From positions 1 through 34,876 of the forward strand of contig JAOZPT010000023.1 in assembly GCA_029932605.1 (NCBI GenBank): a stretch of 34,876 nucleotides of DNA. The letters run 5' to 3'. Within the stretch, counting starts at the first letter, position 1. Each line of letters begins with the position of its first letter. Source of the stretch: Candidatus Zixiibacteriota bacterium. Its GTDB lineage: Bacteria > Zixibacteria > MSB-5A5 > UBA10806 > 4484-95. The translations under genes and the position numbers were made by a program. The notes under the pieces were generated by a model. The model had not been told where the DNA came from. It saw only the letters and a list, made by a program, of their open reading frames with translations, and searched no databases. Below are positions 10,695 to 34,876 of this stretch, one piece after another.

Positions 10695-11096
10695 TCATTT
10701 TCTTTTCTTGAGCTTTTCCTCTGATTCTTTATTATCCGTGGTCTTCCGTTTGGAAACTTTCACCTTCTGGGGCTTTTTCTCCGGTGATTTTAAACGTTTG
10801 GATTTATTGGAGATTTTATCTCTTTTCACCTCTGGAGGCCGGCGACGCTTGATATTGTCATTAATGCCATCGCCGTTGGAATCGATAAATCTGTCCTTTT
10901 TAACAACCGGAACCCTTTTATCTAAAGATGGCTGGGTTATCTTTGCTTTCTGCTGATCCTTGGTTTTTTTAACGACCTTCTCTGTTTTTTGGGATTTGGT
11001 GGAGTCTTTGCTTTTTGGCACTTTTTTAACCGCCAGAACCTCGGCACCTCCAAAAGCGATAAACATCACCAGCACCAGTGTTACCACCTTCTTCAT
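10695..11096 (-). CDS. Exported Lys-rich protein with a DxNGDGIND Ca2+-binding-type loop
   Basis: Signal peptide MKKVVTLVLVMFIAFGGAEVLA; FIDSNGDGIND; ATGA coupling to the upstream gene. Confidence 0.75.
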   Translation of the reverse strand: MKKVVTLVLVMFIAFGGAEVLAVKKVPKSKDSTKSQKTEKVVKKTKDQQKAKITQPSLDKRVPVVKKDRFIDSNGDGINDNIKRRRPPEVKRDKISNKSKRLKSPEKKPQKVKVSKRKTTDNKESEEKLKKRK

Positions 11097-12511
11097 CTCT
11101 TACCTCTCTTTCCCGGGGTTCTCCAATTAGATTTTGTTACATTTCTTTTAACAGAAGGTGTACCAATCGATCGATTAGAATTATTCCGGGTGCTTTTCTT
11201 TATATGTTCTGGATTTGTTGCCTTTGGTTGTTTTTTCCCTATCGACTTCGAGTTTGATTTTACTTTTTTATCATTTTTGATAGTTTTATTCTTAGAACTT
11301 TTAACATCATGTGATTGCTTGGATTTTTTATTTATTTGTCTACTTTTTTTTATCTTTTTACTTGTGTCTTTAGATTTTTTGCTAATACCGGTATCATGCC
11401 GTTTATCGATAACAGGTTTCCTTTTGAGCTTATCACTTGATGAATCGTAACGCTGGCGTGTAAGCTTTGAACCGGTAGTCTTAGGTGGCTTCTCCGGGCT
11501 TGCTGTCTGGCGTATCTCGTGCTTACTTGAATATTTCTGCGTTATCCGGGATGGAGGATGTTTGTACTTTTTGGAATGTTTAACCGGATGCTTAACCACG
11601 TCTCGTATGAAGTCAGGTTCATTTCGGTATTTTTTCTGCTTAAACTTCCAGTGTTTAAATTTGGAGCGTCCATAATCAAAATCCCGAAACCTGCGTTTTA
11701 TCTTGGCATCGACATAATATCTCTGACCATGCCTGATATAGATGTAATCCTGCCAGCAGGGATAGCCGTTATAGTATAACCAGACCCAATGATGACCTAT
11801 ATAAATTGAAGGAATTAGAATAGGTGCAATACCATAATAACAACCATCGATCCAGACCTCAGCGTATGGGAAATTACAACCGATCCAGATTGAACTCATA
11901 TAATATGGATCGATTTGCCAGTAACGGTACCAGCGATGATGACGATAACTGTCATCGATATAGAACATGGTGCTGGCCATCACATAGGGTCCATTAACTA
12001 TGCGATCATTCAGACGAGAGACGAAAACATCCCGTTCTCCACTCATTGTGTGGATAAAGTCATCGTAGTAGTAATCCCAATCGCCGTATTCATAGAACTC
12101 ATAGCGAATGAAGTCGGGCGATTCGATGTAATCATAACTGGCTACCGCATATATGAATTCTTTTCCTCTTGGACCGGTTACCTCAAGACGGTAGTCGTCG
12201 TAAGTATCGGGTATTCGATAAACCTCACCACCGCGAACATAACAATCACCATCATATTCTTCGGGGTAAAGAAGACTTACATTACCGGCCGGATCGATAT
12301 CATAAACAACCATGTAGCAGTCATCCGAGGCTCGAAAATATATCGCCACATCCTCGCCAAAATAATATGTCGCGCCATCACCCTTGTTAACCCAGATATC
12401 GATATCCAGAGCGTTTACCCTGTTGATACCGGTGTGGTTCTCAGCAGAAGATACAACCGGAAGAACCACTATAATAACTACCACCATCATCGAATACAAA
12501 TACTTACGCAT
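11093..12511 (-). CDS. Exported DUF4384-like + PEGA-like protein with a basic disordered tail
   Basis: Signal peptide; IDIWVNKG..Y..GEDVAIYF...YDIDPAGNVSLLYP...GKEFIYAVAS (DUF4384-like); AEVWIDG..YGIAP (PEGA-like); long K/S/R-rich C-terminus; AGGTGG RBS before ATG 12511. Confidence 0.8.
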   Translation of the reverse strand: MRKYLYSMMVVVIIVVLPVVSSAENHTGINRVNALDIDIWVNKGDGATYYFGEDVAIYFRASDDCYMVVYDIDPAGNVSLLYPEEYDGDCYVRGGEVYRIPDTYDDYRLEVTGPRGKEFIYAVASYDYIESPDFIRYEFYEYGDWDYYYDDFIHTMSGERDVFVSRLNDRIVNGPYVMASTMFYIDDSYRHHRWYRYWQIDPYYMSSIWIGCNFPYAEVWIDGCYYGIAPILIPSIYIGHHWVWLYYNGYPCWQDYIYIRHGQRYYVDAKIKRRFRDFDYGRSKFKHWKFKQKKYRNEPDFIRDVVKHPVKHSKKYKHPPSRITQKYSSKHEIRQTASPEKPPKTTGSKLTRQRYDSSSDKLKRKPVIDKRHDTGISKKSKDTSKKIKKSRQINKKSKQSHDVKSSKNKTIKNDKKVKSNSKSIGKKQPKATNPEHIKKSTRNNSNRSIGTPSVKRNVTKSNWRTPGKRGKR

Positions 12512-12529
12512 GACAATCACCACCTATAC

Positions 12530-12922
12530 TTATTTCCCTCTTCGGGGTTTCTTCCCCTCTTCTTCGGGGGAATGTTTCTTTTTATGTTTAGCTTCATCTT
12601 TTGACTTTCTATTCTTTTTATATTTTTCCCTATATTCCCTATCTTCCTTCTGTCTCTCCCTGACAATCTTGCGATCATATTTTTTATAGACATAATCTGC
12701 ATGCTTCGCATTTCTACGCTTGTAATAATAACCGTCTCCAACAACTCTAAAGACATAATAATCGCAATTTGTATAAACCCTCACCCACCGGGGACGATGA
12801 TGGCAATCATAGCAGTATGCCGGAGCATACCGTGGCCTGTGCCAGAAAGCGATATAAGTCACACAGCTGGTAGATGCCAAAGCAAAAACCGTTATCAGTA
12901 ATATTAAAATCCATCTTCTCAC
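12530..12922 (-). CDS. Small basic predicted lipoprotein with a CxxCH motif
   Basis: GGAGGGG RBS, GTG start, hydrophobic leader ending ASTSC, CYDCH, K/R/E-rich tail. Confidence 0.75.
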   Translation of the reverse strand: MRRWILILLITVFALASTSCVTYIAFWHRPRYAPAYCYDCHHRPRWVRVYTNCDYYVFRVVGDGYYYKRRNAKHADYVYKKYDRKIVRERQKEDREYREKYKKNRKSKDEAKHKKKHSPEEEGKKPRRGK

Positions 12923-12933
12923 TTTATCCCCTC

Positions 12934-13773
12934 CTAATTATCCTGCACTATCGTTTCAACGTGTTTGGGCATTCCGGGAACAATCTTTAATTCACGATTA
13001 CCAGGATCGATTTGATAAGCCCAAGCAAATTCCATAGCTGGTACATCATAATCAAAAAACAGGTCGGTTACCCAGACACGGGCATAATGCCACTCACCAA
13101 AATGCCGTAATTTAAGCACATACATATGCCCCTCAATTGCCTCAATACTATTAAATCCAGACCAACCATCAGGAGGTGCATAGCCAACATCATCGAAATC
13201 ATCTGCATAACCGAAATCCTGGATATAATAATCCTCAAACCTTACATTTATAAAAAACGCTTCAAGTAAAACATCGTAATCGAGGTAAATATCGCAATCT
13301 TCAGAATCCCATCGAACAACTTCACCGAGATAAAGATCAAACCCGGAGTAATTTGGCTCATAATAATAATCATAAATTACCTCATCAAAACCTTCAGGAC
13401 GAGGAGTGTCCATGGCAAACGCTTCACTTAAATCAGATTCATTCCCGGATTCATCATAAGCTGATAACCTGTAATAATAAGTATTACCATTAATAACTTC
13501 GGTATCAACCCAATCGGTATCGGGGTGACTGATATCTGCTTTCAATGTAAATGTCCCTGTTTCAGAAGTATTACGATATACGAGATAGCCATCTATGTCA
13601 TCCACCTCAACCGGGTGCCAGTAAATATAAACCGCTTCATCAGCTGTAACTGAGGTGATTCCCGAAGGAGGAGGTGGGTATTCATCTAAATACACATATT
13701 CAGTGGTAGTTTTCTCACAGCCAGCAACGAAAATTAAACCTGCCAATAATCCTAAAATCACTAACTTTCTCAC
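12934..13773 (-). CDS. Acidic lipoprotein with a fibronectin type III domain
   Basis: AAGGAGG RBS + GTG 13773; lipobox VAGC; Fn3 pattern PPPPSGI...W...GYLVYR...YYYRLSAYDESGNES. Confidence 0.85.
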   Translation of the reverse strand: MRKLVILGLLAGLIFVAGCEKTTTEYVYLDEYPPPPSGITSVTADEAVYIYWHPVEVDDIDGYLVYRNTSETGTFTLKADISHPDTDWVDTEVINGNTYYYRLSAYDESGNESDLSEAFAMDTPRPEGFDEVIYDYYYEPNYSGFDLYLGEVVRWDSEDCDIYLDYDVLLEAFFINVRFEDYYIQDFGYADDFDDVGYAPPDGWSGFNSIEAIEGHMYVLKLRHFGEWHYARVWVTDLFFDYDVPAMEFAWAYQIDPGNRELKIVPGMPKHVETIVQDN

Positions 13774-13821
13774 AAGAGCCTCCTTCTTTAAAAGCAATTT
13801 CCCTCGTTCATACTAATATCA

Positions 13822-13838
13822 ATCAATATCCATGCCAA
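13822..13838 (-). promoter_or_regulatory. Sigma54 (-24/-12) promoter TTGGCATGGATATTGAT
   Basis: Matches YTGGCACGNNNNTTGCW with correct spacing; -12 GC replaced by GA; adjacent to a sigma54 activator gene. Confidence 0.75.
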
Positions 13839-13905
13839 AATAATGATGTAACTATCCTCCCGTCTTACAATCAGTTGCAATTTACATAAAAAGCCCACCC
13901 GCTTT

Positions 13906-13949
13906 AAATGCACAAATATTGTTCAATTTTCCCACTCGTTTGTGCATTT
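13906..13949. promoter_or_regulatory. Tandem enhancer (UAS) sites for an NtrC-family activator
   Basis: TGCACAAATATTGTTCA (13909-13925) and TCCCACTCGTTTGTGCA (13930-13946), 21 bp apart, resembling NtrC TGCACCA-N3-TGGTGCA; outer arms form a perfect 11-bp inverted repeat. Confidence 0.7.
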
Positions 13950-14047
13950 CGTTCTTTTTAAAAAATTAGATTATACACTCCTTTCTTTAAGTTAATAACA
14001 TTACCAAGTTTTCTATTCACTTTATTTACTTAGAACAAAATATATCT

Positions 14048-15397
14048 TCACAAAGATTTGTTTATCCCATATTGTTTCATTTTAAGGCGCAGGGTATTTC
14101 GATGAATTCCCAGAAGCTCAGCTGCCTTTATCAATTGTCCTTTGGTTCTTTGCAGTGCTTCAATAATCGCCTTTTTTTCAAGTGTGGTTAAGTTGAGATT
14201 TTCAGACAGAATGGCAGAACCTCCCGATGAGACTTTAAACGCCTCTAAACTTTCGCTATCAATAGCCCCTGTTCTGGTTAGCACAACCGCCCTCTCAATA
14301 GTGTTTTCCAGCTCCCGGACATTGCCCGGCCATCTATGTGAAAGCAAAAGATCCTTTGCCTGCGGGGTAATACCCTCAATCTTCTTTCCGACCTTGTTAG
14401 AAAATTTATCTATAAAATAATTAACCAACGGTAAAATGTCCTCTTTTCTCTCCCTGAGAGGTGGGAGATTGATAGGTATGACGTTTAATCGATAATACAG
14501 GTCCTCTCGGAAACTACCATCTTTGACCTTAGACTCGATATCTCGATTGGTAGCGGTTACCAGACGAATATCGACCTTTATATTCTCAGAACCACCAAGG
14601 CGTTCAAACGATTTTGTTTCCAGGACTCGCAGAAGTTTTATCTGCATGGGAAGTGATATATCACCGATTTCGTCGAGAAAAATGGTTCCTTTATGGGCAA
14701 GCTCAAACCGCCCTATACGCCTTCTAACAGCACCTGTAAAAGCTCCTTTCTCATATCCAAAAAGTTCTGACTCAAGGAGGGGTTCTGGTAATGCAGCACA
14801 ATTAACGGCTAAGAACGGTTTATCTCTTCGGTTTGAGCTTGAATGTATCGCCCGAGCCACAAGCTCTTTACCCGTTCCCGACTCTCCCTTTATAAACACC
14901 GTAGAATCAGTTTTGGCGATAACCGATATATCGGAAAGCATCTTTTTAAAAACAGGAGATTGACCGATAAACTCAGGAAAACTCTCAACGGTTTCAAGTT
15001 TCCGGCGAAGGTAGCGATTTTCGGCAACCAGCCTATGGCTCTTTTCTACTTTTTTAAGAATTATATCCAATTGCTCAAGTTTCACTGGTTTTATCAGGTA
15101 ATCGGTAGCCCCCGCTTTCATAGCCTCAACAGCATCCTCGATGGAACCATAAGCAGTGATAACCACCACCTCCATATCCGGATAGATTTTCTTAATTTTT
15201 TTAAGCAGGGTTAAACCATCCATCTCCGGCATGCGCATATCTGTAATTGCTACTTCAGCACCCTCCCTTTTTAACAGTTCTAAAGCTATGAGACCAGATG
15301 AAGCTTCCCTGACCATATGTTTTTGTTTCTTCAGATATCCACCAAGCAGATGACGTTGGTTTTGTTGGTCATCGATAACTATAATTCGCACACTCAC
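14048..15397 (-). CDS. Sigma54-dependent response regulator (REC-AAA+-Fis HTH; ZraR/AtoC/NtrC family)
   Basis: TDMRMP receiver, GESGTGKE, ESELFGYEKGAFTGA, WPGNVRELEN, AAELLGIHRNTL. Confidence 0.97.
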   Translation of the reverse strand: MSVRIIVIDDQQNQRHLLGGYLKKQKHMVREASSGLIALELLKREGAEVAITDMRMPEMDGLTLLKKIKKIYPDMEVVVITAYGSIEDAVEAMKAGATDYLIKPVKLEQLDIILKKVEKSHRLVAENRYLRRKLETVESFPEFIGQSPVFKKMLSDISVIAKTDSTVFIKGESGTGKELVARAIHSSSNRRDKPFLAVNCAALPEPLLESELFGYEKGAFTGAVRRRIGRFELAHKGTIFLDEIGDISLPMQIKLLRVLETKSFERLGGSENIKVDIRLVTATNRDIESKVKDGSFREDLYYRLNVIPINLPPLRERKEDILPLVNYFIDKFSNKVGKKIEGITPQAKDLLLSHRWPGNVRELENTIERAVVLTRTGAIDSESLEAFKVSSGGSAILSENLNLTTLEKKAIIEALQRTKGQLIKAAELLGIHRNTLRLKMKQYGINKSL

Positions 15398-17433
15398 CTC
15401 ATAACAGGTATGGTTAAAATAAACTTAGTCGGGCCACCAATTTTTGACTCAACTCTTAAATCACCACCATGGTCAACGGCTATCCTATGGGCAGTGGCCA
15501 ATCCCAGACCGGTTCCTCCCGGTTTATCAGTGTAAAACGGTTTAAACAGATTTCGTTGTTGTTGATCTGAGATACCCGGTCCATCGTCGCTTACAACCAA
15601 CACCATTCGCCGGACGTCATTACCGGAACCGTCAAACTCAAACATAGTTGAAACCTCTATATGGCCATTTTCCCCAATCGCTTCGATTGCGTTCTTAATA
15701 AGATTGGATAAAACCCCTTTTATGGCTTCTTTATCTATTCGCACTTTTCCATTTGCCACTTTCGTTTTTATCTCTATAGAACGAGCGCTGGCTTCGTACT
15801 TATAAAGCGAAACCACCTCCTCTATAACTTGTTTTATATTAGCTTCCTGAAATTCCAACTTACCGCTTTTAGCCACCTGCAGTATTTTCTCAACGATCAT
15901 ATCAAGGTTCCTGTGCTCAGAATTTAATGTAGCTAAAAACTCATCGAATTCCTCTCGGCCGGATTCTACTTTTATTTCACTACCAAGCCTCTGGATAATC
16001 ATCCCGATGGAGTTAAGGGGGTTTCTTATTTCATGAGCCAGACCGGCCGCTACAGTACCCAATTCCGAAAGGCGCTGAGCTTGTTGTGCCTGGCGTTCCA
16101 AAGCCCGTCTTCTTGATATATCATGGGCAACAACGATAACACCGGTTGGTTTACCTTCCGCATTAAACAAAGGATTGGTTGATACCAGGAGATTCATGGG
16201 ACCAGAACTGCCTATTATCTGAGTTTCAAAGCTTTTAGATTTTTTCTCCTTTAATACGGATTTTACCATAAAGGGGTCACCCGGGAAATAATGGTCGTAA
16301 CTCCACGTTTTCGGTTCGCCATCGGGGAGGCCAAAATTTTTTCTGGCTGATACATTGGCGGTAATTATCTGCAGTTTTTCATCAGTTGATAATACTATTC
16401 CAGCAATAGAATCATGTAAAGAACGTGAAATAGCTCTGGCTCTACCAAGAGCGCTTTCCATAATACTCAAATTTTGATAACCGGCAAATATCCCAAAACC
16501 TACTATTCCCAGAACAACCAATAATATGACAAACAGCCAGACCTGTTTCTGAAAGTTGGCTGTAAGCTGGCGGTATCCATAAAGAGAAAGGCCAACCCTG
16601 AACAAACCAAAAAACTCTCCACCCGAGTTGAATGTCTGCACCACTTCAAGTACTTTCCTATCTTGGAAACTGACGGTGCGATAAAGAGCGCTATCGGCCT
16701 CAAGCGCTTTCGCCAGAAATGGATCATCCTCAATACGGTCCATCTGTGAAACCTGTTTGGAGGCAAAGACAATACCATCGTAATTTTGCAATACGATATA
16801 TTCGACACCCACCTCCAATGAAAGTTGATTTAGAAGGTATGCCAACGACAACTTACGGTCAGCATACTGACCCACAGTCCAGGGATAAACAATAAGGATA
16901 AAAGTATCGCCTTTATATGGTAAAAGACCAAATAAAAACCTCCTATCTTGAATAAAATAAAAATCATAAATTATATCAAATGGCTGGTCAATCTGGACGT
17001 TTTCTAAAAAATACGTCTGCAGGCTGTCAAGAATTCCTGATATGTTACGGGGTTCGGTCTCCATTTTATGGATAACGGATTTTCCGCGGTCGTAGATGGA
17101 TGCCCGTATAAGCCCAAGCTTTGCCACCAACGTTTCCAGGAAATCGGGCTCGTTTTCATAGACCTGACTTGCGATAGTTAGTTCGATTTCAGATACAATT
17201 TCATCAACCGCTATATCAGTAATCTGACGGTCAGTTGTGATTATATTCGATGCCGAGGCGACAAGTACCGTTGTCAATGCTCTTCCCTGCTGAACAATAC
17301 CGGCCAGTGTAGCTTTTCTACCCGCTCGCACCGAAAAGTAACCAGCGGCAATAAGTATTACAATCAGGAGAATAAACGACGCCAGGACATAACGTAGCTT
17401 AAGGCCGAAAAATATCTTTAACCTGCGATTCAC
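15394..17433 (-). CDS. Membrane sensor histidine kinase (periplasmic domain, PAS-like, HisKA, HATPase), ZraS/HydH-like
   Basis: Two TM helices, LAHEIRNPL, NLIKNAIEA, DDGPGI, GTGLGLA; start uncertain among 17439/17436/17433. Confidence 0.93.
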   Translation of the reverse strand: MNRRLKIFFGLKLRYVLASFILLIVILIAAGYFSVRAGRKATLAGIVQQGRALTTVLVASASNIITTDRQITDIAVDEIVSEIELTIASQVYENEPDFLETLVAKLGLIRASIYDRGKSVIHKMETEPRNISGILDSLQTYFLENVQIDQPFDIIYDFYFIQDRRFLFGLLPYKGDTFILIVYPWTVGQYADRKLSLAYLLNQLSLEVGVEYIVLQNYDGIVFASKQVSQMDRIEDDPFLAKALEADSALYRTVSFQDRKVLEVVQTFNSGGEFFGLFRVGLSLYGYRQLTANFQKQVWLFVILLVVLGIVGFGIFAGYQNLSIMESALGRARAISRSLHDSIAGIVLSTDEKLQIITANVSARKNFGLPDGEPKTWSYDHYFPGDPFMVKSVLKEKKSKSFETQIIGSSGPMNLLVSTNPLFNAEGKPTGVIVVAHDISRRRALERQAQQAQRLSELGTVAAGLAHEIRNPLNSIGMIIQRLGSEIKVESGREEFDEFLATLNSEHRNLDMIVEKILQVAKSGKLEFQEANIKQVIEEVVSLYKYEASARSIEIKTKVANGKVRIDKEAIKGVLSNLIKNAIEAIGENGHIEVSTMFEFDGSGNDVRRMVLVVSDDGPGISDQQQRNLFKPFYTDKPGGTGLGLATAHRIAVDHGGDLRVESKIGGPTKFILTIPVMR

Positions 17434-17439
17434 CACCAA

Positions 17440-29159: not shown

Positions 29160-31114
29160 TACTGTTTTGCCTGAGCGGTTACACATTCGGTCAGAAACTC
29201 TTAAGGGCCGATGCTGAACCGGTCGATTCGGTGTTATCTGATTCGACTGCCACCGTTGATACATCTGAGGTAATGCCCAAAGATACCCTGATGTTTGAGG
29301 TTGATTCATTGCAATATGGTAATATTGATTCGGTCGTTGTTGAAAATGTAACCATAGTCCCAGACACTCATCTTAAACCATACTATCATACATACAGGCT
29401 TGGTCGGAGTTATGGTGATTATTTGAATTATACTACCGGTGTTTTTTCTCTTAAACACGGTGCAGTTGGTCAACCGGAGCTGTTGGTGAAATCTGTTTTA
29501 CTTGGTGGTCTAGGTGCTATTTATAATGGAGTACCCGTTTTTCACCAGGGTTTTTATTTCCCTTTTCGCAGGGGTATGGATTTGAATGCGCTGATGTTTG
29601 AGAATGTATCACGGATTGATATTACACCGTTATCATATCTCGATATATATTCCCAGGGGCAGGTGTTGTCTTTAAGGAGTATGGTCTGGCCAGCCATCGA
29701 TAATCCCTCGAGTATATCAGTTGCTCAAAAACCGTATGGCTATTCAAGATCTGCCTGGCGTTTCTCGCGATGGTTTTGTCGCAACATAGCTGCTACATTT
29801 ACTGCGGGTTTCAAAGAGTCCCGGGGTTATTACCAGAGTGGGACCGACTATGACGGTTTTGGTGTATCCGGTTCTTTTGCTTACCAGCCGAAACCTAACG
29901 GTGAAATTATTTATACTTTTTACCAGGGTAAGGCTAAAAAGGGGATTTTACAATTTGACAGGGTTATTGCTCCATCTTTGCGGGTTAATAATGTTCTTAA
30001 TCATCATAATCTGAAAGGGAGATACAAACCATCAAGGAATTGCCAATTTGAAATAGACCTCTTCCACCAGAAGAATTACAGTCATCTTTTTGATGATGCT
30101 AATTATCATCATCGGATAAGGGATTTTATCTGGGGAGGTAAGGCAGTTGTTTCTTTAAGTGGTTCGGCTCACAATCTTAAGGCCGAAGCGGGTGGTCGGA
30201 GACATCATATAGGTGGTTTAGAATCTGATGCGGCAAGTTCGGTTACCATGGGGATAGTAATTAGCGATTCAATGGTTATCAGCAACAAAGAGGAACTGAT
30301 GATCTCAGCAAGGGTAAGAAAAAATAACATCAACGATTTTAATATTGCTGGAACAGGTCGTTATTTGCATAGCCTGAACAACCGAACGAATATGAACCTA
30401 TCAGCGGGCTATCTTGATTGTTTACCTGATATTTACAGTATGTATTTCAATTATCCCACCATAAGCATGGAAGTTACAGACCTTTATGAATCCTACAATT
30501 TCCGTCCTGATGCTACAATTAAACCCTGTAAAATTATGTTCGCCACAGCTGGATTTGATATCAGTTTCAATGATAAGTTTTCTCTTTTTACAAACATTTC
30601 CTATGAAAAAGTTGACAATGATATAATATGTGTGACGGAGGATTCATCTGCGGTATGGTATACCACTCCGAAAAACATTGATTATGACAGGTTCACTTAT
30701 ATCGCAATCCTTAATTATTCTGTTACGAAATATTTTAAAGGTTCTTCCGGGATAACATATTTTATTTATGACCCCGGCAGTCCTCTACCGGGGATTAAAC
30801 ATTCTCCTAAAGGCATAGCATATTCCAGAGGTGCGCTGATATTTAAAGAGGTGCTGAAAGATTTAGACATATCAGGAGTTTACCAGTGTCGTTATATAAG
30901 TCCAAGGGAATATTATGGTTTTATTGTTGATTCGTATGAACCGGCAGTAGTTTTTGATGGGGCTATAGTGGTTCGTTTTGGTACTTTTGAGTTTAGGCTT
31001 ATTGAGGACAATATCTTGGATTATTTCATTGATAATAAATATAATATGTGGGGTGAGTATATAATGCCTCCAGGTTCGGTGTGGTGGCAACTCACCTGGA
31101 ATTTTACGAACTAA
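29120..31114 (+). CDS. Outer-membrane beta-barrel with a TonB-dependent-receptor plug-like domain
   Basis: Signal peptide; plug-like YNGVPV...MDLNALMFENVSRIDI; amphipathic strands; terminal WWQLTWNF. Confidence 0.7.
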   Translation: MVYSKSSLVSVLIILFCLSGYTFGQKLLRADAEPVDSVLSDSTATVDTSEVMPKDTLMFEVDSLQYGNIDSVVVENVTIVPDTHLKPYYHTYRLGRSYGDYLNYTTGVFSLKHGAVGQPELLVKSVLLGGLGAIYNGVPVFHQGFYFPFRRGMDLNALMFENVSRIDITPLSYLDIYSQGQVLSLRSMVWPAIDNPSSISVAQKPYGYSRSAWRFSRWFCRNIAATFTAGFKESRGYYQSGTDYDGFGVSGSFAYQPKPNGEIIYTFYQGKAKKGILQFDRVIAPSLRVNNVLNHHNLKGRYKPSRNCQFEIDLFHQKNYSHLFDDANYHHRIRDFIWGGKAVVSLSGSAHNLKAEAGGRRHHIGGLESDAASSVTMGIVISDSMVISNKEELMISARVRKNNINDFNIAGTGRYLHSLNNRTNMNLSAGYLDCLPDIYSMYFNYPTISMEVTDLYESYNFRPDATIKPCKIMFATAGFDISFNDKFSLFTNISYEKVDNDIICVTEDSSAVWYTTPKNIDYDRFTYIAILNYSVTKYFKGSSGITYFIYDPGSPLPGIKHSPKGIAYSRGALIFKEVLKDLDISGVYQCRYISPREYYGFIVDSYEPAVVFDGAIVVRFGTFEFRLIEDNILDYFIDNKYNMWGEYIMPPGSVWWQLTWNFTN

Positions 31115-31531
31115 TCACCAGTGAATCACTATTTTCTGTCCTCGTTTATATTGGATATCAAGATTGTCTAAGCCTCCTACTCTACCCAGTGTTGGTGGAA
31201 TATCATTGGAGTTGGAGATAGCGAAAGTGGTTTTGAATTTTCTGTCTGCCAGGCGAACGCTTAATTTGTGAAGATACATATTGGTGGCAGTTTCAGGCAA
31301 CAGACCGGTGATTCTATACCTTTTCCCGTTCTTATAATTGCCAACCATCAATATGCCTAGGCTTTTTGGTAAAATTGATATATCAGCGCCGGTATCGGCC
31401 AGAATATCCTCAATACTTATCCAGCACTTAAGATACTTTGAATAGATTGAAAGCTTTAACTTGGGCCTTTTTATCTTTTTAAAGACGTTAGATTGTTCGC
31501 TAACATATGGGATAATCAACTTTTTAGGCAT
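31115..31531 (-). CDS. Retropepsin-like (clan AA) single-domain aspartic protease
   Basis: ILADTGADISILP and TLGR motifs. Confidence 0.82.
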   Translation of the reverse strand: MPKKLIIPYVSEQSNVFKKIKRPKLKLSIYSKYLKCWISIEDILADTGADISILPKSLGILMVGNYKNGKRYRITGLLPETATNMYLHKLSVRLADRKFKTTFAISNSNDIPPTLGRVGGLDNLDIQYKRGQKIVIHW

Positions 31532-31710
31532 TTTAGAAACCTATTTGTTAATTTATAGCTTATACTTAAGTTCTTATCCCTGTTAGCCGCTTTAAATATC
31601 GGGTATTTTTTATGTATGTCCACACCTTTCCAGATTATATTCTTACCCACCTTTATCGTGTAAACGATAGATTCCTGTTTTCTTATTGTTAACTTGTTCC
31701 TGGGAATCAT
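31516..31710 (-). CDS. Small basic hypothetical protein (DUF5678-like by eye)
   Basis: 64 aa, overlaps the protease start; YTIKVGKNIIWKGVD pattern. Confidence 0.55.
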   Translation of the reverse strand: MIPRNKLTIRKQESIVYTIKVGKNIIWKGVDIHKKYPIFKAANRDKNLSISYKLTNRFLKCLKS

Positions 31711-31851
31711 AGTTTCTTCTTTTTTCTATTTCTATTTGAATATATCGACAGGCATGTCGATGCCTATAATCTTGTGAAATAATCTATAATTAAGTGAAAC
31801 AATGTTGATTTTATATTTCTGGTTGGGTTCTAATTTGTTTATATTATAAAA

Positions 31852-33072
31852 ATGAATAAGAAAGTATTAAGCTGGGCTGGATATGATTTTGCCAATACAA
31901 TATTTTCCATGAATGTTGTCTCACGTTATTTTCCGATTTTTGCAGTGACTGTTCTTGGCGGTACTGACCTGGTGGTGGGTGTTTCTCGCTCAACGGCTAT
32001 GGTTTTAGTTGCATTAACCACGCCTATTTTTGGCGCCCTTGCTGACCAGCATAATAAAAGAAAAACATCGTTGGTTATTTTTACTATAGCCTGCTGTGTC
32101 ATTACCGCTTTTTTAAGCACAGTTAATAACTTAATTGTAGAACTTGTGCTTTTTTGTCTGGCTATTTATTGCTTCCAGTCAGCGCTTGTTTTTTATAACG
32201 CTTTATTGCCGGCAGTTGCGCCCTCCGGCAAAATGGGATATGTATCAGGTCTGGGGGTTTCGCTTGGCTATGTCGGAAGCATTACCGGATTGTTTGTAGT
32301 AGCTGTTTTATCATCGAAGACCTTTTCGCCATATATCTGGACAGCTATTTTATTTTTGTTTTTTTCACTGCCGGTGTTCATCTGGGTTAAGGATATGCCG
32401 AGGGAAAATATCAAAGTCGATGGGGGGAAGGGGAGCCAATATCATAAAGGGTTAATAATTTCTTTGAAACGAGCCAGGCAAATTCCCGGTGTCATCAGGT
32501 TTTTGATAGGTAGATTTTTCATTGTTGAGGCAATGGAGACCGTTATTTTGTTTATGGCGGTTTTCCTGATTAAGGGTGCGGGTTTTAAGGGTATAACTTC
32601 AAATAACTTCGGGATTGATGAAGTGACAATTTACCTTATCGTTGTGACATCTTCGACGATAATCGGCTCTTACATCTGGGGTATGCTGACTCAAAAGTAT
32701 GGTCCTAAAAAAATGTTACTTTTGGCAGTGATATTGTGGTTTATATCTTTGTCGGGTATGGTAATGACATCAGGTAAATCATTTTTGTACTTATGGGGTT
32801 CAATAGCGGGCATTGCTCTTGGCGGTGTGTGGACGTCAGACAGGCCTTTATTAATAAATCTCATAGGTGATACCGCCAGACTTGGTGAATTTTTTGGGCT
32901 ATATGCTTTATCGGGAAGACTTGCGGCTGTAATAGGACCTCTTATCTGGGGGCTTGTTATATTTTTTGGGGAACCTTTTGGAGACATTAAATATAAATTC
33001 GCTATCGAGGCTCTTTTTTTGATGATGGTTATCGGTTTTATTATTTTGAGGAAGGTTCCTGATGCAAGGTGA
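31852..33072 (+). CDS. MFS transporter, UMF1/Atg22-like
   Basis: SWAGYDFANTIF, FYNALLP, VSGLGVSLGYVG, EFFGLY..SGRLAAVIGP. Confidence 0.9.
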   Translation: MNKKVLSWAGYDFANTIFSMNVVSRYFPIFAVTVLGGTDLVVGVSRSTAMVLVALTTPIFGALADQHNKRKTSLVIFTIACCVITAFLSTVNNLIVELVLFCLAIYCFQSALVFYNALLPAVAPSGKMGYVSGLGVSLGYVGSITGLFVVAVLSSKTFSPYIWTAILFLFFSLPVFIWVKDMPRENIKVDGGKGSQYHKGLIISLKRARQIPGVIRFLIGRFFIVEAMETVILFMAVFLIKGAGFKGITSNNFGIDEVTIYLIVVTSSTIIGSYIWGMLTQKYGPKKMLLLAVILWFISLSGMVMTSGKSFLYLWGSIAGIALGGVWTSDRPLLINLIGDTARLGEFFGLYALSGRLAAVIGPLIWGLVIFFGEPFGDIKYKFAIEALFLMMVIGFIILRKVPDAR

Positions 33073-34120
33073 GAGTTCAACGGCCCGTGATTATCGCGAG
33101 ATAGTCGGAGCTATACATATTCATTCTAAATATTCCGACGGCACAAAAAGCATTGAGGATATTGCTCGAATTGCCGGTGAGGTCGGGCTCGATTTTTTAA
33201 TGGTCTCAGACCATATGACTTTAGAACCCCTTCATCGAGGATTAGAGGGCTTTTATGGAAAAACGGCGGTTCTGATAGGTTATGAAGTTAACGATCCTGA
33301 TGATAAAAACCATTATTTGGTATTTGATGTCAATGAGGTATTACCCTCCGGGATCAAAGCGAATGAGTATGTAAAGCTTATTAAAGAAAAAGGTGGTCTG
33401 GGTATTATTGCCCATCCTGATGAAATTCGCACCAGGTTGGTCAAATATCCCTCTTATCCATGGACGGATTGGCATGTTGATGGTTATGATGGCATCGAGA
33501 TATGGAACCATATGTCGGAATGGATGGAATCCTTGAGTCGCTGGAACATGTTGAAGATGGCTGTTTCGCCAAGAAGGGTTTTGAAGAGCCCCACGGGAAG
33601 GATATTGCAAATCTGGGATGAAGTTAATCAACGTCGGAAAGTTGTTGGTGTTGGTTCTATCGATGTCCATGCTTATCCTTATCGTCTGGGACCATTAAGA
33701 ATTACGATATTTCCTTACAAGGTTCAGTTTAAGGCAATCCGTACACATCTGTTACTAACTGAACCTGCCTCTGGAGATTTCAACGCTTTGAAAAAGGCGA
33801 TATACCGTTCACTAAGGGGGTGTCACGCCTTCATATCCAATTACAGATGGGGAGATGCCAGGGGTTTTGAATTTTATTTGACTAACAGCTCAGGCAAAGC
33901 TGTCTGCGGGGATGAAATGCCCTGGACTGATGATACTACTCTTGTAGCTAAGTTGCCAAAATGGGCTGAAGTAAAAATAATCCGTAACGGTAGGTTGATG
34001 TTTTCCGGTAAGGGGAAGGAGTTTGAGATTAAGGCGCTAAAGCCTGGTTTATACAGGATGGAAGCTTTCATCAACAAAAAGGGTTGGATATATTCCAATC
34101 ATATCAGGTTGATAAAATAA
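33062..34120 (+). CDS. PHP-related metallohydrolase (CehA/McbA-like)
   Basis: GAIHIHSKYSDG, VSDH, GYE, IAHP, GIEIWN, SIDVH, C-terminal YRMEA...WIYSNHI. Confidence 0.85.
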   Translation: MQGESSTARDYREIVGAIHIHSKYSDGTKSIEDIARIAGEVGLDFLMVSDHMTLEPLHRGLEGFYGKTAVLIGYEVNDPDDKNHYLVFDVNEVLPSGIKANEYVKLIKEKGGLGIIAHPDEIRTRLVKYPSYPWTDWHVDGYDGIEIWNHMSEWMESLSRWNMLKMAVSPRRVLKSPTGRILQIWDEVNQRRKVVGVGSIDVHAYPYRLGPLRITIFPYKVQFKAIRTHLLLTEPASGDFNALKKAIYRSLRGCHAFISNYRWGDARGFEFYLTNSSGKAVCGDEMPWTDDTTLVAKLPKWAEVKIIRNGRLMFSGKGKEFEIKALKPGLYRMEAFINKKGWIYSNHIRLIK

Positions 34121-34186
34121 AAGGGTGAAACATAATGCTTAGATAGAGGGGGGCTAGAACTACCTAAGCGAGGAGGTTTCACCCTT
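34114..34186 (-). ncRNA. Candidate novel ~70-nt hairpin small RNA
   Basis: 11-bp and 10-bp stems, a G-U pair that forms only on the minus strand, U-tract after the stem, consensus promoter placing +1 at the first stem base. Confidence 0.6.
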
Positions 34187-34192
34187 AAAAAT

Positions 34193-34221
34193 ATTATAAT
34201 GTCAAACCGATAGTTTGTCAA
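34193..34221 (-). promoter_or_regulatory. Perfect-consensus sigma70 promoter TTGACA-N17-TATAAT
   Basis: Plus strand shows ATTATA 34193-34198 and TGTCAA 34216-34221. Confidence 0.85.
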
Positions 34222-34437
34222 GTAATTTTAGTTATACTACCCCTATTTATTTTAGTCGGTAGTATTGTTAATATTATTAAGGATTTCACCAGAGTTTTTT
34301 GTTTATATGTCGGCTATGTAAAATTTGTATTAGTTATATAGTGGTGTAACGATTTGATTGTGAATATATTATACGAATAACTTAAAGTAGTATATAGGAT
34401 ATTTTTATGTTTTTAAATCGAGAGTTAAATTTCCTTT

Positions 34438-34875
34438 TTAATAAAGTTTACCGGATTTTATTATGAAAACACCGGCGTCTTTCATTTCCTGAAGAGCTTT
34501 TTTGGAATCATCAGGATTAACATCGACACCCTTTATGGCATCGGAAATGACAACTACCTCAAATCCCTGTTTGAGGCCATCAAGGGCGGTGGCTTTGACA
34601 CAATAATCTGTGGCCAGGCCGGTAATAAATATCCTTCTTATACCATTTTCTTTGAGCTTACCTGACAGATCTGTCCCCTGGAAACCGGAGTAAGCCTCTT
34701 TGTTTTTGTCTGTGCCTTTAAAAATATGTATAGCATTTTCGACTTTGAGTCCGGGATGGAAATCCGCACCTTTGGTATTGGCAACGCAATGAGGAGGCCA
34801 TATTCCGCCCTGCTTTTTAAATGATATGTGATCTTCCGGATGCCAATCCTGTGTAGTGTAAACCTTATCGAATTT
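34438..34875 (-). CDS. pncA: Nicotinamidase/pyrazinamidase, 5' end outside the window (not in the ORF track)
   Basis: Manual translation: TQDWHPEDHISF...WPPHCV...KG...EAYSGF...GLATDYCVKATALD. Confidence 0.93.
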   Translation of the reverse strand, partial: KFDKVYTTQDWHPEDHISFKKQGGIWPPHCVANTKGADFHPGLKVENAIHIFKGTDKNKEAYSGFQGTDLSGKLKENGIRRIFITGLATDYCVKATALDGLKQGFEVVVISDAIKGVDVNPDDSKKALQEMKDAGVFIIKSGKLY

Positions 34876-34876
34876 T

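Follow-up and report, generated by a model that had tools for sequence, protein, structure and literature searches.

The minus strand of a contig from a Zixibacteria genome carries what is, on strong support, a free-standing small RNA gene whose RNA displays a single C-rich loop, and the RNA is present in 148 of the 151 genomes of the phylum (two covariance models, R1 and R2, combined). The case for a gene, and for this strand, is made by conservation, by covariation, by the polarity of G-U pairs and by a promoter and U-tract that are conserved with it. As to what the RNA does, the reading we prefer, at about an even chance of being right, is that of a free-standing C-loop RNA of about 70 nt, phylum-wide, that pairs without Hfq to G-rich ribosome-binding regions and so blocks translation. 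'The window' below means the whole stretch of DNA that was analysed, 34,876 nt.

The rod, its promoter and its loop

Folded as the minus strand the element reaches −28 kcal/mol (z −7.5), with none of 200 shuffles as stable; the plus-strand fold is weaker (−25.8, z −5.2) and the plus strand has no U-tract at the element. An outer stem of 11 bp leads to a 6x5 internal loop, an inner stem of 10 bp that includes one G-U, and a loop of 13 nt, UUCUAGCCCCCCU; a U-tract follows (Table 1). An earlier, sequence-only reading of this DNA had the G-U pair of the inner stem on the minus strand only, which holds, and in the alignment of homologues the one-sided pair changes are G-U on that strand. It had also pictured a CCUCCU bulge, whose first C is actually paired, the free 5' arm being CUCCUC.

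The promoter proposed in that reading, with TTGACA and TATAAT 17 nt apart, a start at the stem and a trailing U-tract, is there on the minus strand exactly as described. It is the sole 12/12 promoter match within 30000-34876, and perfect TTGACA-N16-18-TATAAT sites number just 18 across the 2.53-Mb genome. The predicted +1, 34186, lies seven bases past the −10 box and is the opening base of the outer stem; transcription would run from there and terminate at the U-tract. The statement that no open reading frame follows the promoter was wrong to the letter, a 40-codon TTG frame crossing the element (34099-34221), but right in denying it a coding role: the frame begins inside the −35 box, homologues differ by one-base, frame-breaking indels, and coding was rejected. 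Also to be seen on the minus strand are a second TTGACA within the promoter spacer (34201-34206) and a near-palindrome, TTGTCAAG/TTGACA, enclosing the −35 box. Just upstream of the −35 is an 8-bp inverted repeat, ATACTACC ... GGTAGTAT (34230-34265), which may mark where the nicotinamidase-like transcript ends or else be an operator.

Table 1. Parts of the small RNA gene and its flanking genes, in window coordinates
Feature	Position	Strand	Basis or remark
−35 box, TTGACA	34216..34221	−	motif match, 6/6
−10 box, TATAAT, 17-nt spacer	34193..34198	−	motif match
Predicted ~70-nt small RNA (rod and U-tail)	34114..34186	−	ends predicted; covariance-model match 34113-34187, E 1.2e-17
Outer stem, 5' arm	34176..34186	−	pairs with 34121-34131; fold and covariation
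Internal loop, 5' side, CUCCUC	34170..34175	−	lineage-restricted, not conserved phylum-wide (11/135)
Inner hairpin, 10-bp stem with near-invariant closing A-U (77/77) and G-C (75/77)	34137..34169	−	
Apical pyrimidine loop, 13 nt, containing a C6 tract	34147..34159	−	C5 in loop 134/135 (partly by construction); unpaired probability about 0.9
Outer stem, 3' arm	34121..34131	−	fold and covariation
U-tract, predicted intrinsic termination	34114..34120	−	U-rich tail in 124/135 copies
Convergent PHP-domain gene (context)	33062..34120	+	lineage-limited; stop codon overlaps U-tract
Upstream isochorismatase/nicotinamidase-like gene (context)	34438..34875	−	not conserved; 5'-truncated by contig end

A homologue search with covariation analysis, the check that had been suggested, yielded homologues throughout the phylum with covarying stems. 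When 31 copies are aligned with MAFFT, 92.3% of cells pair, 7 of the 21 pairs have two-sided changes, the covariation exceeds that of all 500 shuffles and slid controls pair in just 33-54%. In a model-fitted alignment of 77 distinct copies, which is biased towards structure, 20 of the 21 pairs vary on both sides. Model matches span 61-78 nt, rod length is fixed and within subfamilies the outer stem is highly identical in sequence. There is also a second subfamily (f10, f19 and f15, plus one f3 paralogue) in which the stems are wholly replaced; there and in the paralogues the loop persists, AG/CU closing pairs included, on unrelated stems.

What is conserved is a pyrimidine loop of 13-15 nt ending (G)CCCCC(C)U. 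Five Cs lie inside the hairpin loop in 134 of 135 distinct copies, and the loop has that length in 128 of the 135, both figures being partly by construction since the model was trained on such loops; GCCCCC occurs in 129 and CCCCCTCT in 128. The 5' half of the loop is merely pyrimidine-rich and varies freely, and the length of the C-tract varies too. The anti-Shine-Dalgarno bulge, which had been taken for the key element, has to give way: because the loop is kept while CCUCC in the 5' arm is rare (11 of 135 distinct copies), the functional element is likely the apical C-tract.

Spread, neighbours and control of expression

An exact scan for the loop motif, with one genome per species, gave 31 loci, which by title were 19 Zixibacteria, 10 uncultured bacterium/Ignavibacteria, one Komeilibacteria and one Alphaproteobacteria. 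The ten are identical to copies in genomes of the window's own class, and the alphaproteobacterial locus, which has no stem, was set aside as a chance match. Model R1, built from 31 sequences and used at a cut-off of E <= 0.05, matched in 130 of the 151 genomes of the phylum, the two weakest (G030 and G077) being counted uninspected. A broader model, R2, found clear copies in 18 of 20 re-searched R1 misses, with one further miss outside the re-search; the R2 search gave no copy in G064 or G049, nor in G002. The weak model matches L356 (a plain terminator) and L360 were rejected by eye; seven self-hits on the opposite strand and the partial L131 match were removed ahead of the counts. When metagenomes were scanned with the commonest loop, at least 100 loci came up, 92 of those sharing the outer stem.

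The window's genome has a single copy, and other genomes have up to four (four in G084). Tandem copies occur at L108:1501-1782 (G025) and L126:1501-1860 (G146), and in G065 two identical copies (L337 and L357) lie inside a duplicated region of unknown genes. In family f10 (L342-L352) a second small GC-rich hairpin often stands between the promoter region and the rod, and because of it the transcript there may be longer.

The Komeilibacteria-titled contig (L094:1400-1620, minus strand; G170) has the inner hairpin within a longer rod; a promoter motif accompanies it, as does a separate terminator. The CTP synthase that flanks it is 76-78% identical to those of two CPR relatives and 51-53% to those of three Zixibacteria, and its other neighbour, a foreign-looking beta-propeller protein, has no match in any of those five genomes. 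Searched as a control, 40 relatives of that CPR genome yielded a single match (E 0.048), rejected by eye. Horizontal gain is possible, as is a chimeric contig.

Among 92 matches, 38 follow a DUF1573 gene and 20 a NarL/LuxR response regulator gene; the facing genes are a cluster represented by RtcB at 18 of the 92 and the PHP gene at 11. Paralogues adjoin unrelated genes. With neighbours this variable, and with genes downstream often convergent, a cis-regulatory role is unlikely.

The response regulator has a further bearing on the RNA. Of 147 loci, 23 have a NarL/LuxR regulator gene at most 450 nt upstream, and at 17 of these the palindrome AATAGGG-N6-CCCTATT (at least 11/14) is found, with a perfect −35 at 4 of the 23; the 124 loci lacking an adjacent regulator have the palindrome at 2 and a perfect TTGACA, 28-52 nt upstream, at 66 (6/124 in a control window), all these counts coming from related genomes and so not being independent. 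The last two bases of the palindrome start a degenerate −35. Three loci, L130, L134 and L152, are regulator-adjacent yet have a perfect −35 and no palindrome. Allowing one mismatch there are 0-2 palindromes per genome, this promoter among them in 4 of 5 genomes, and a control pattern has 1-7 sites per genome; hence it is the position of the palindrome that is informative, not its count. Eight loci were extended, and six of them have a HisKA_3 kinase gene (GAF or GAF/PAS) ahead of the regulator. The whole cassette of kinase (GAF/PAS, HisKA_3), NarL/LuxR regulator and small RNA was observed at L399, L400, L401, L402, L404 and L405, with the palindrome at most of them.

A lux-box-like operator position is that of an activator site, and by this analogy the regulator likely activates the small RNA in several lineages: in families f3, f4, f8, f12 and f16 the adjacent NarL/LuxR protein would bind AATAGGG-N6-CCCTATT at the −35. 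In other lineages the operator-dependent promoter appears to have been replaced by a consensus promoter, and in the window's own lineage regulator and operator would have been lost, with constitutive sigma70 expression in their stead; in the window's genome the matches to the regulator are confined to receiver domains, and the RNA has no palindrome nearby. In G117 a second palindrome (L407:1501-1520) comes immediately after a TTGACA, and the gene downstream encodes a sigma54-dependent response regulator; this is a repressor-like position. Literature searches found no paper for an AATAGGG-N6-CCCTATT operator.

Base pairing and its rivals

Irrespective of how its synthesis is controlled, what might the loop be for? 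If the RNA pairs with messages, the rod would present its one C-rich loop to mRNAs, the seed (G)CCCCC(C)UCU would pair with tracts of five or more G near the ribosome-binding regions of several of them, and the pairing would block their translation, with target sets differing among lineages. A trans-acting translational repressor was among the roles originally suggested and remains the best reading, though a conserved target was not found. The Hfq family was not found in any of the 61 genomes searched for it.

Of 2063 predicted genes in the window's genome, 55 have G5 within 22 nt upstream of an ATG/GTG start, the starts being from a simple custom caller and partly wrong. Start regions there at or below −14 kcal/mol number 81 with the real loop versus 28-128 with shuffled loops. 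For 414 orthologue pairs with G117 (1.2 of 2.7 Mb, 44%) the overlap of the top 10% is 6 versus 5.9 +/- 2.5 shuffled, and the outcome is alike for leader and early coding windows. Perfect 12-nt complements in 16 genomes come to 12 non-self sites versus 18 for the control pattern, none homologous; elsewhere in the window's genome the longest complement is at most 10 nt, and the flanking genes have no conserved G5 start. Individual candidates were rejected in turn: among 28 ffh starts read (L199 left out; L211 misread) that of the window's genome alone has a G-tract, and a sugar transferase and a radical-SAM gene with G5 common to two genomes (Fisher p 0.005) retained it on wider sampling in just 2/28 and 2/11. 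The AAGGAGG and GGAGGGG sites of the sigma54 operon to which the sequence-only reading had pointed do exist, upstream of 13797 and 12922, but they are ordinary and lend no specific support as targets; across this genome AGGAGG is found 171 times within 20 nt upstream of a predicted start. The region itself (10695-17439) encodes a sigma54-dependent two-component pair and then an operon of secreted-looking proteins (DUF4384/PEGA, unknowns). These results weaken base pairing and do not refute it, because the comparison covered less than half of one second genome, the gene caller was crude and short seeds with many targets could be missed. There is one point of another kind against a role as seed only: the near-invariant closing pairs, the fixed rod length and the identity of the outer stem exceed a seed's needs.

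The serious rival is a protein-binding decoy or scaffold: as what a two-component system puts out, the rod would offer its fixed loop (AG-UUYCY..GCCCCCU-CU) to a protein of the phylum that binds C-tracts, and would titrate that protein. We hold this tentatively and would sooner doubt than adopt it. The logic is that of the Gac/Rsm systems, where protein titration is driven by a two-component pair, here with a different protein. The lack of a conserved mRNA target is what it would lead one to expect, and the near-invariant closing pairs with a G before the C-tract (GCCCCC), near-universal presence in the phylum, redundant paralogues with unrelated stems and the scarcity of the palindrome, with one of its 0-2 sites per genome at this promoter in 4/5 genomes (a count not above control), are all in keeping with it. 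However, each RNA has a single motif, and known sponges usually repeat theirs; there are no GGA loops for CsrA, though the window's genome encodes CsrA; neither Ro60 (0/41 genomes) nor Hfq was found; the 5' half of the loop is not fixed, nor is the length of the C-tract; and no partner gene is linked to the RNA. The fuller version, in which the RNA is the dedicated output of the GAF/PAS kinase and NarL/LuxR regulator, a decoy for a C-tract-binding protein or ribosomal component, and once moved into a CPR genome, seems to us rather unlikely. Were that version true, a new RNA-protein pair would underlie a post-transcriptional circuit that spans the phylum and has been rewired to constitutive expression in some lineages. 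A housekeeping role, exercised on the ribosome or on some stable RNA by pairing with rRNA, tmRNA or tRNA or through a link to RtcB-type RNA repair, is improbable. Phylum-wide presence, mostly in single copy with a strong promoter, would become it, as would convergence with the rtcB cluster at 18/92 loci, a G4 site of partial complementarity in each of 23S and 16S, and the finding of no 6S RNA in the window's genome. But with rRNA just four G would take part, leaving the invariant fifth C unpaired, and these sites are equally present in G049, a genome in which no copy of the RNA turned up; rtcB in the window's genome is on another contig; the RNA is far too short for 6S (a model of 187 positions), with SRP RNA and tmRNA separately present; and control by a response regulator would be unusual. 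As pairing partners rRNA, tmRNA and tRNA-Ala were rejected, the complementarity being too short and universal.

Two further accounts strike us as very remote. A mere transcription terminator or 3'-end stabiliser of neighbouring genes would be a rod with a U-tract, would abut the 3' end of a convergent gene, as at many loci, and would follow a same-strand gene, as at most; yet it would need no invariant 13-15-nt loop and no operator or promoter of its own at fixed spacing, it would not explain a plus strand without U-tract, and the element persists beside unrelated genes. The orphan type I antitoxin and the IS-derived antisense RNA, both offered in the sequence-only reading, are hardly to be credited either. 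The rod is short, stable and strongly promoted, and two divergent paralogues lie near integrase and HsdM genes, but the single copy in the genome, vertical synteny across families and throughout the phylum, no conserved small ORF or transposase beside the RNA and no match among 72,556 plasmids or 50,697 phages largely refute them, viral scans having given one stemless chance match and otherwise none. Base pairing of the loop with G-rich mRNA sites remains the interpretation we prefer.

Known C-loop RNAs and a new family

That the element belongs to no Rfam family was borne out by a scan of Rfam 15, in which the best E over it was 5.7, and at nine loci of other variants no Rfam match fell on the element at E <= 5. 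Literature searches found no sRNA or structured RNA described for Zixibacteria and no paper on this RNA, though supplements and subscription journals might hold the motif; 'Zixi' is absent from the main text of two motif-discovery papers (PMC11109978, PMC5737381). It would thus be a new RNA family, most likely working like the known C-loop sRNAs and, on the features tested, outside 6C, RepG, Y RNA, 6S and CsrB.

Several identities were considered and rejected. For a Y RNA no Ro60 (TROVE) was found, in the 41 genomes or in the window's own; a sponge of the CsrB/RsmZ type would have repeated GGA, not a pyrimidine loop, CsrA itself being present; 6S RNA has about 180 nt and a central bubble, as against 61-78 nt here, and RF00013 has no match in the genome; and SRP RNA is present separately. 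The window's genome is rated 99.96% complete, with no RF00013 match, its 16S unassembled, and tRNA-Sec, tmRNA, SRP RNA and CsrA present.

Few sRNAs persist across a whole phylum, and this one comes as a package: a structure model, a natural mutational series with stems swapped and loop kept, a predicted regulator and operator, and an apparent promoter swap. If it acts by base pairing it would be an independent and minimal case of C-loop and G-tract recognition in an Hfq-less lineage, and if it binds a protein, a global regulator as yet undescribed would lie behind it. In both cases Rfam could take it up as a candidate, and its size is small enough for tests in E. coli.

Response regulators with small RNAs, often paralogous, as their main output are familiar from GacA-RsmY/Z, LuxO-Qrr and CiaR-csRNA. 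The Zixibacteria RNA differs from these in having no GGA repeats, no Hfq and a different operator, and in that the regulator appears to have been lost in many lineages, with a consensus −35 instead. A CCCCUCU motif attributed to FsrA was not confirmed in the literature search.

The RNA has the conserved unpaired C-rich loop of the C/U-loop sRNAs and, at the level of motifs, its own promoter and terminator. The tested members of that class (6C, sX13, RoxS/FsrA, CJnc190 and RepG) pair with G-rich sites chaperone-free or beside the ribosome-binding site (PMC6486639, PMC3771888, PMC8216469, PMC8687705, PMC8295292). Closest is RepG (HPnc5490) of Helicobacter pylori, the C/U-rich terminator-hairpin loop of which pairs with a G-repeat of tlpB-hp0102; it shares the stand-alone gene, the C/U loop on a terminator hairpin and an adjacent response regulator gene. 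RepG is reported from Helicobacter species only and has a second stem-loop (PMC8295292, PMC8687705); by description alone, then, two stem-loops there compare with one rod here, whose 5' and 3' ends are paired and which is spread through the phylum and has paralogues. CJnc190 of Campylobacter jejuni matures from longer precursors by RNase III cleavage and has an antisense RNA as pairing partner (PMC8687705), whereas the Zixibacteria RNA, again compared by description alone, has its promoter directly before the rod and no evident antisense partner. The 6C sRNA of Actinobacteria, loops of which with at least five C pair with G-rich leaders, e.g. the panD ribosome-binding site AGGGGGG (PMC6486639), has in common a C-rich loop and broad conservation in a lineage without Hfq; it has two C-rich hairpins and belongs to high-GC Gram-positives, as against a single hairpin loop with no Rfam match. 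In turn, sX13 (PMC3771888) and RoxS/RsaE/FsrA (PMC8216469; see also PMC2790875) bring C-rich seeds to G-rich sites near starts independently of Hfq, but they are multi-stem RNAs of other phyla with three or more C-rich regions, and the present RNA has no Rfam match. The best reading, by analogy and with no claim to membership in any of these families, is that the RNA works like RepG, CJnc190 or 6C: with its single motif, its large open loop and the latitude in C-tract length it fits RepG, CJnc190, 6C and sX13.
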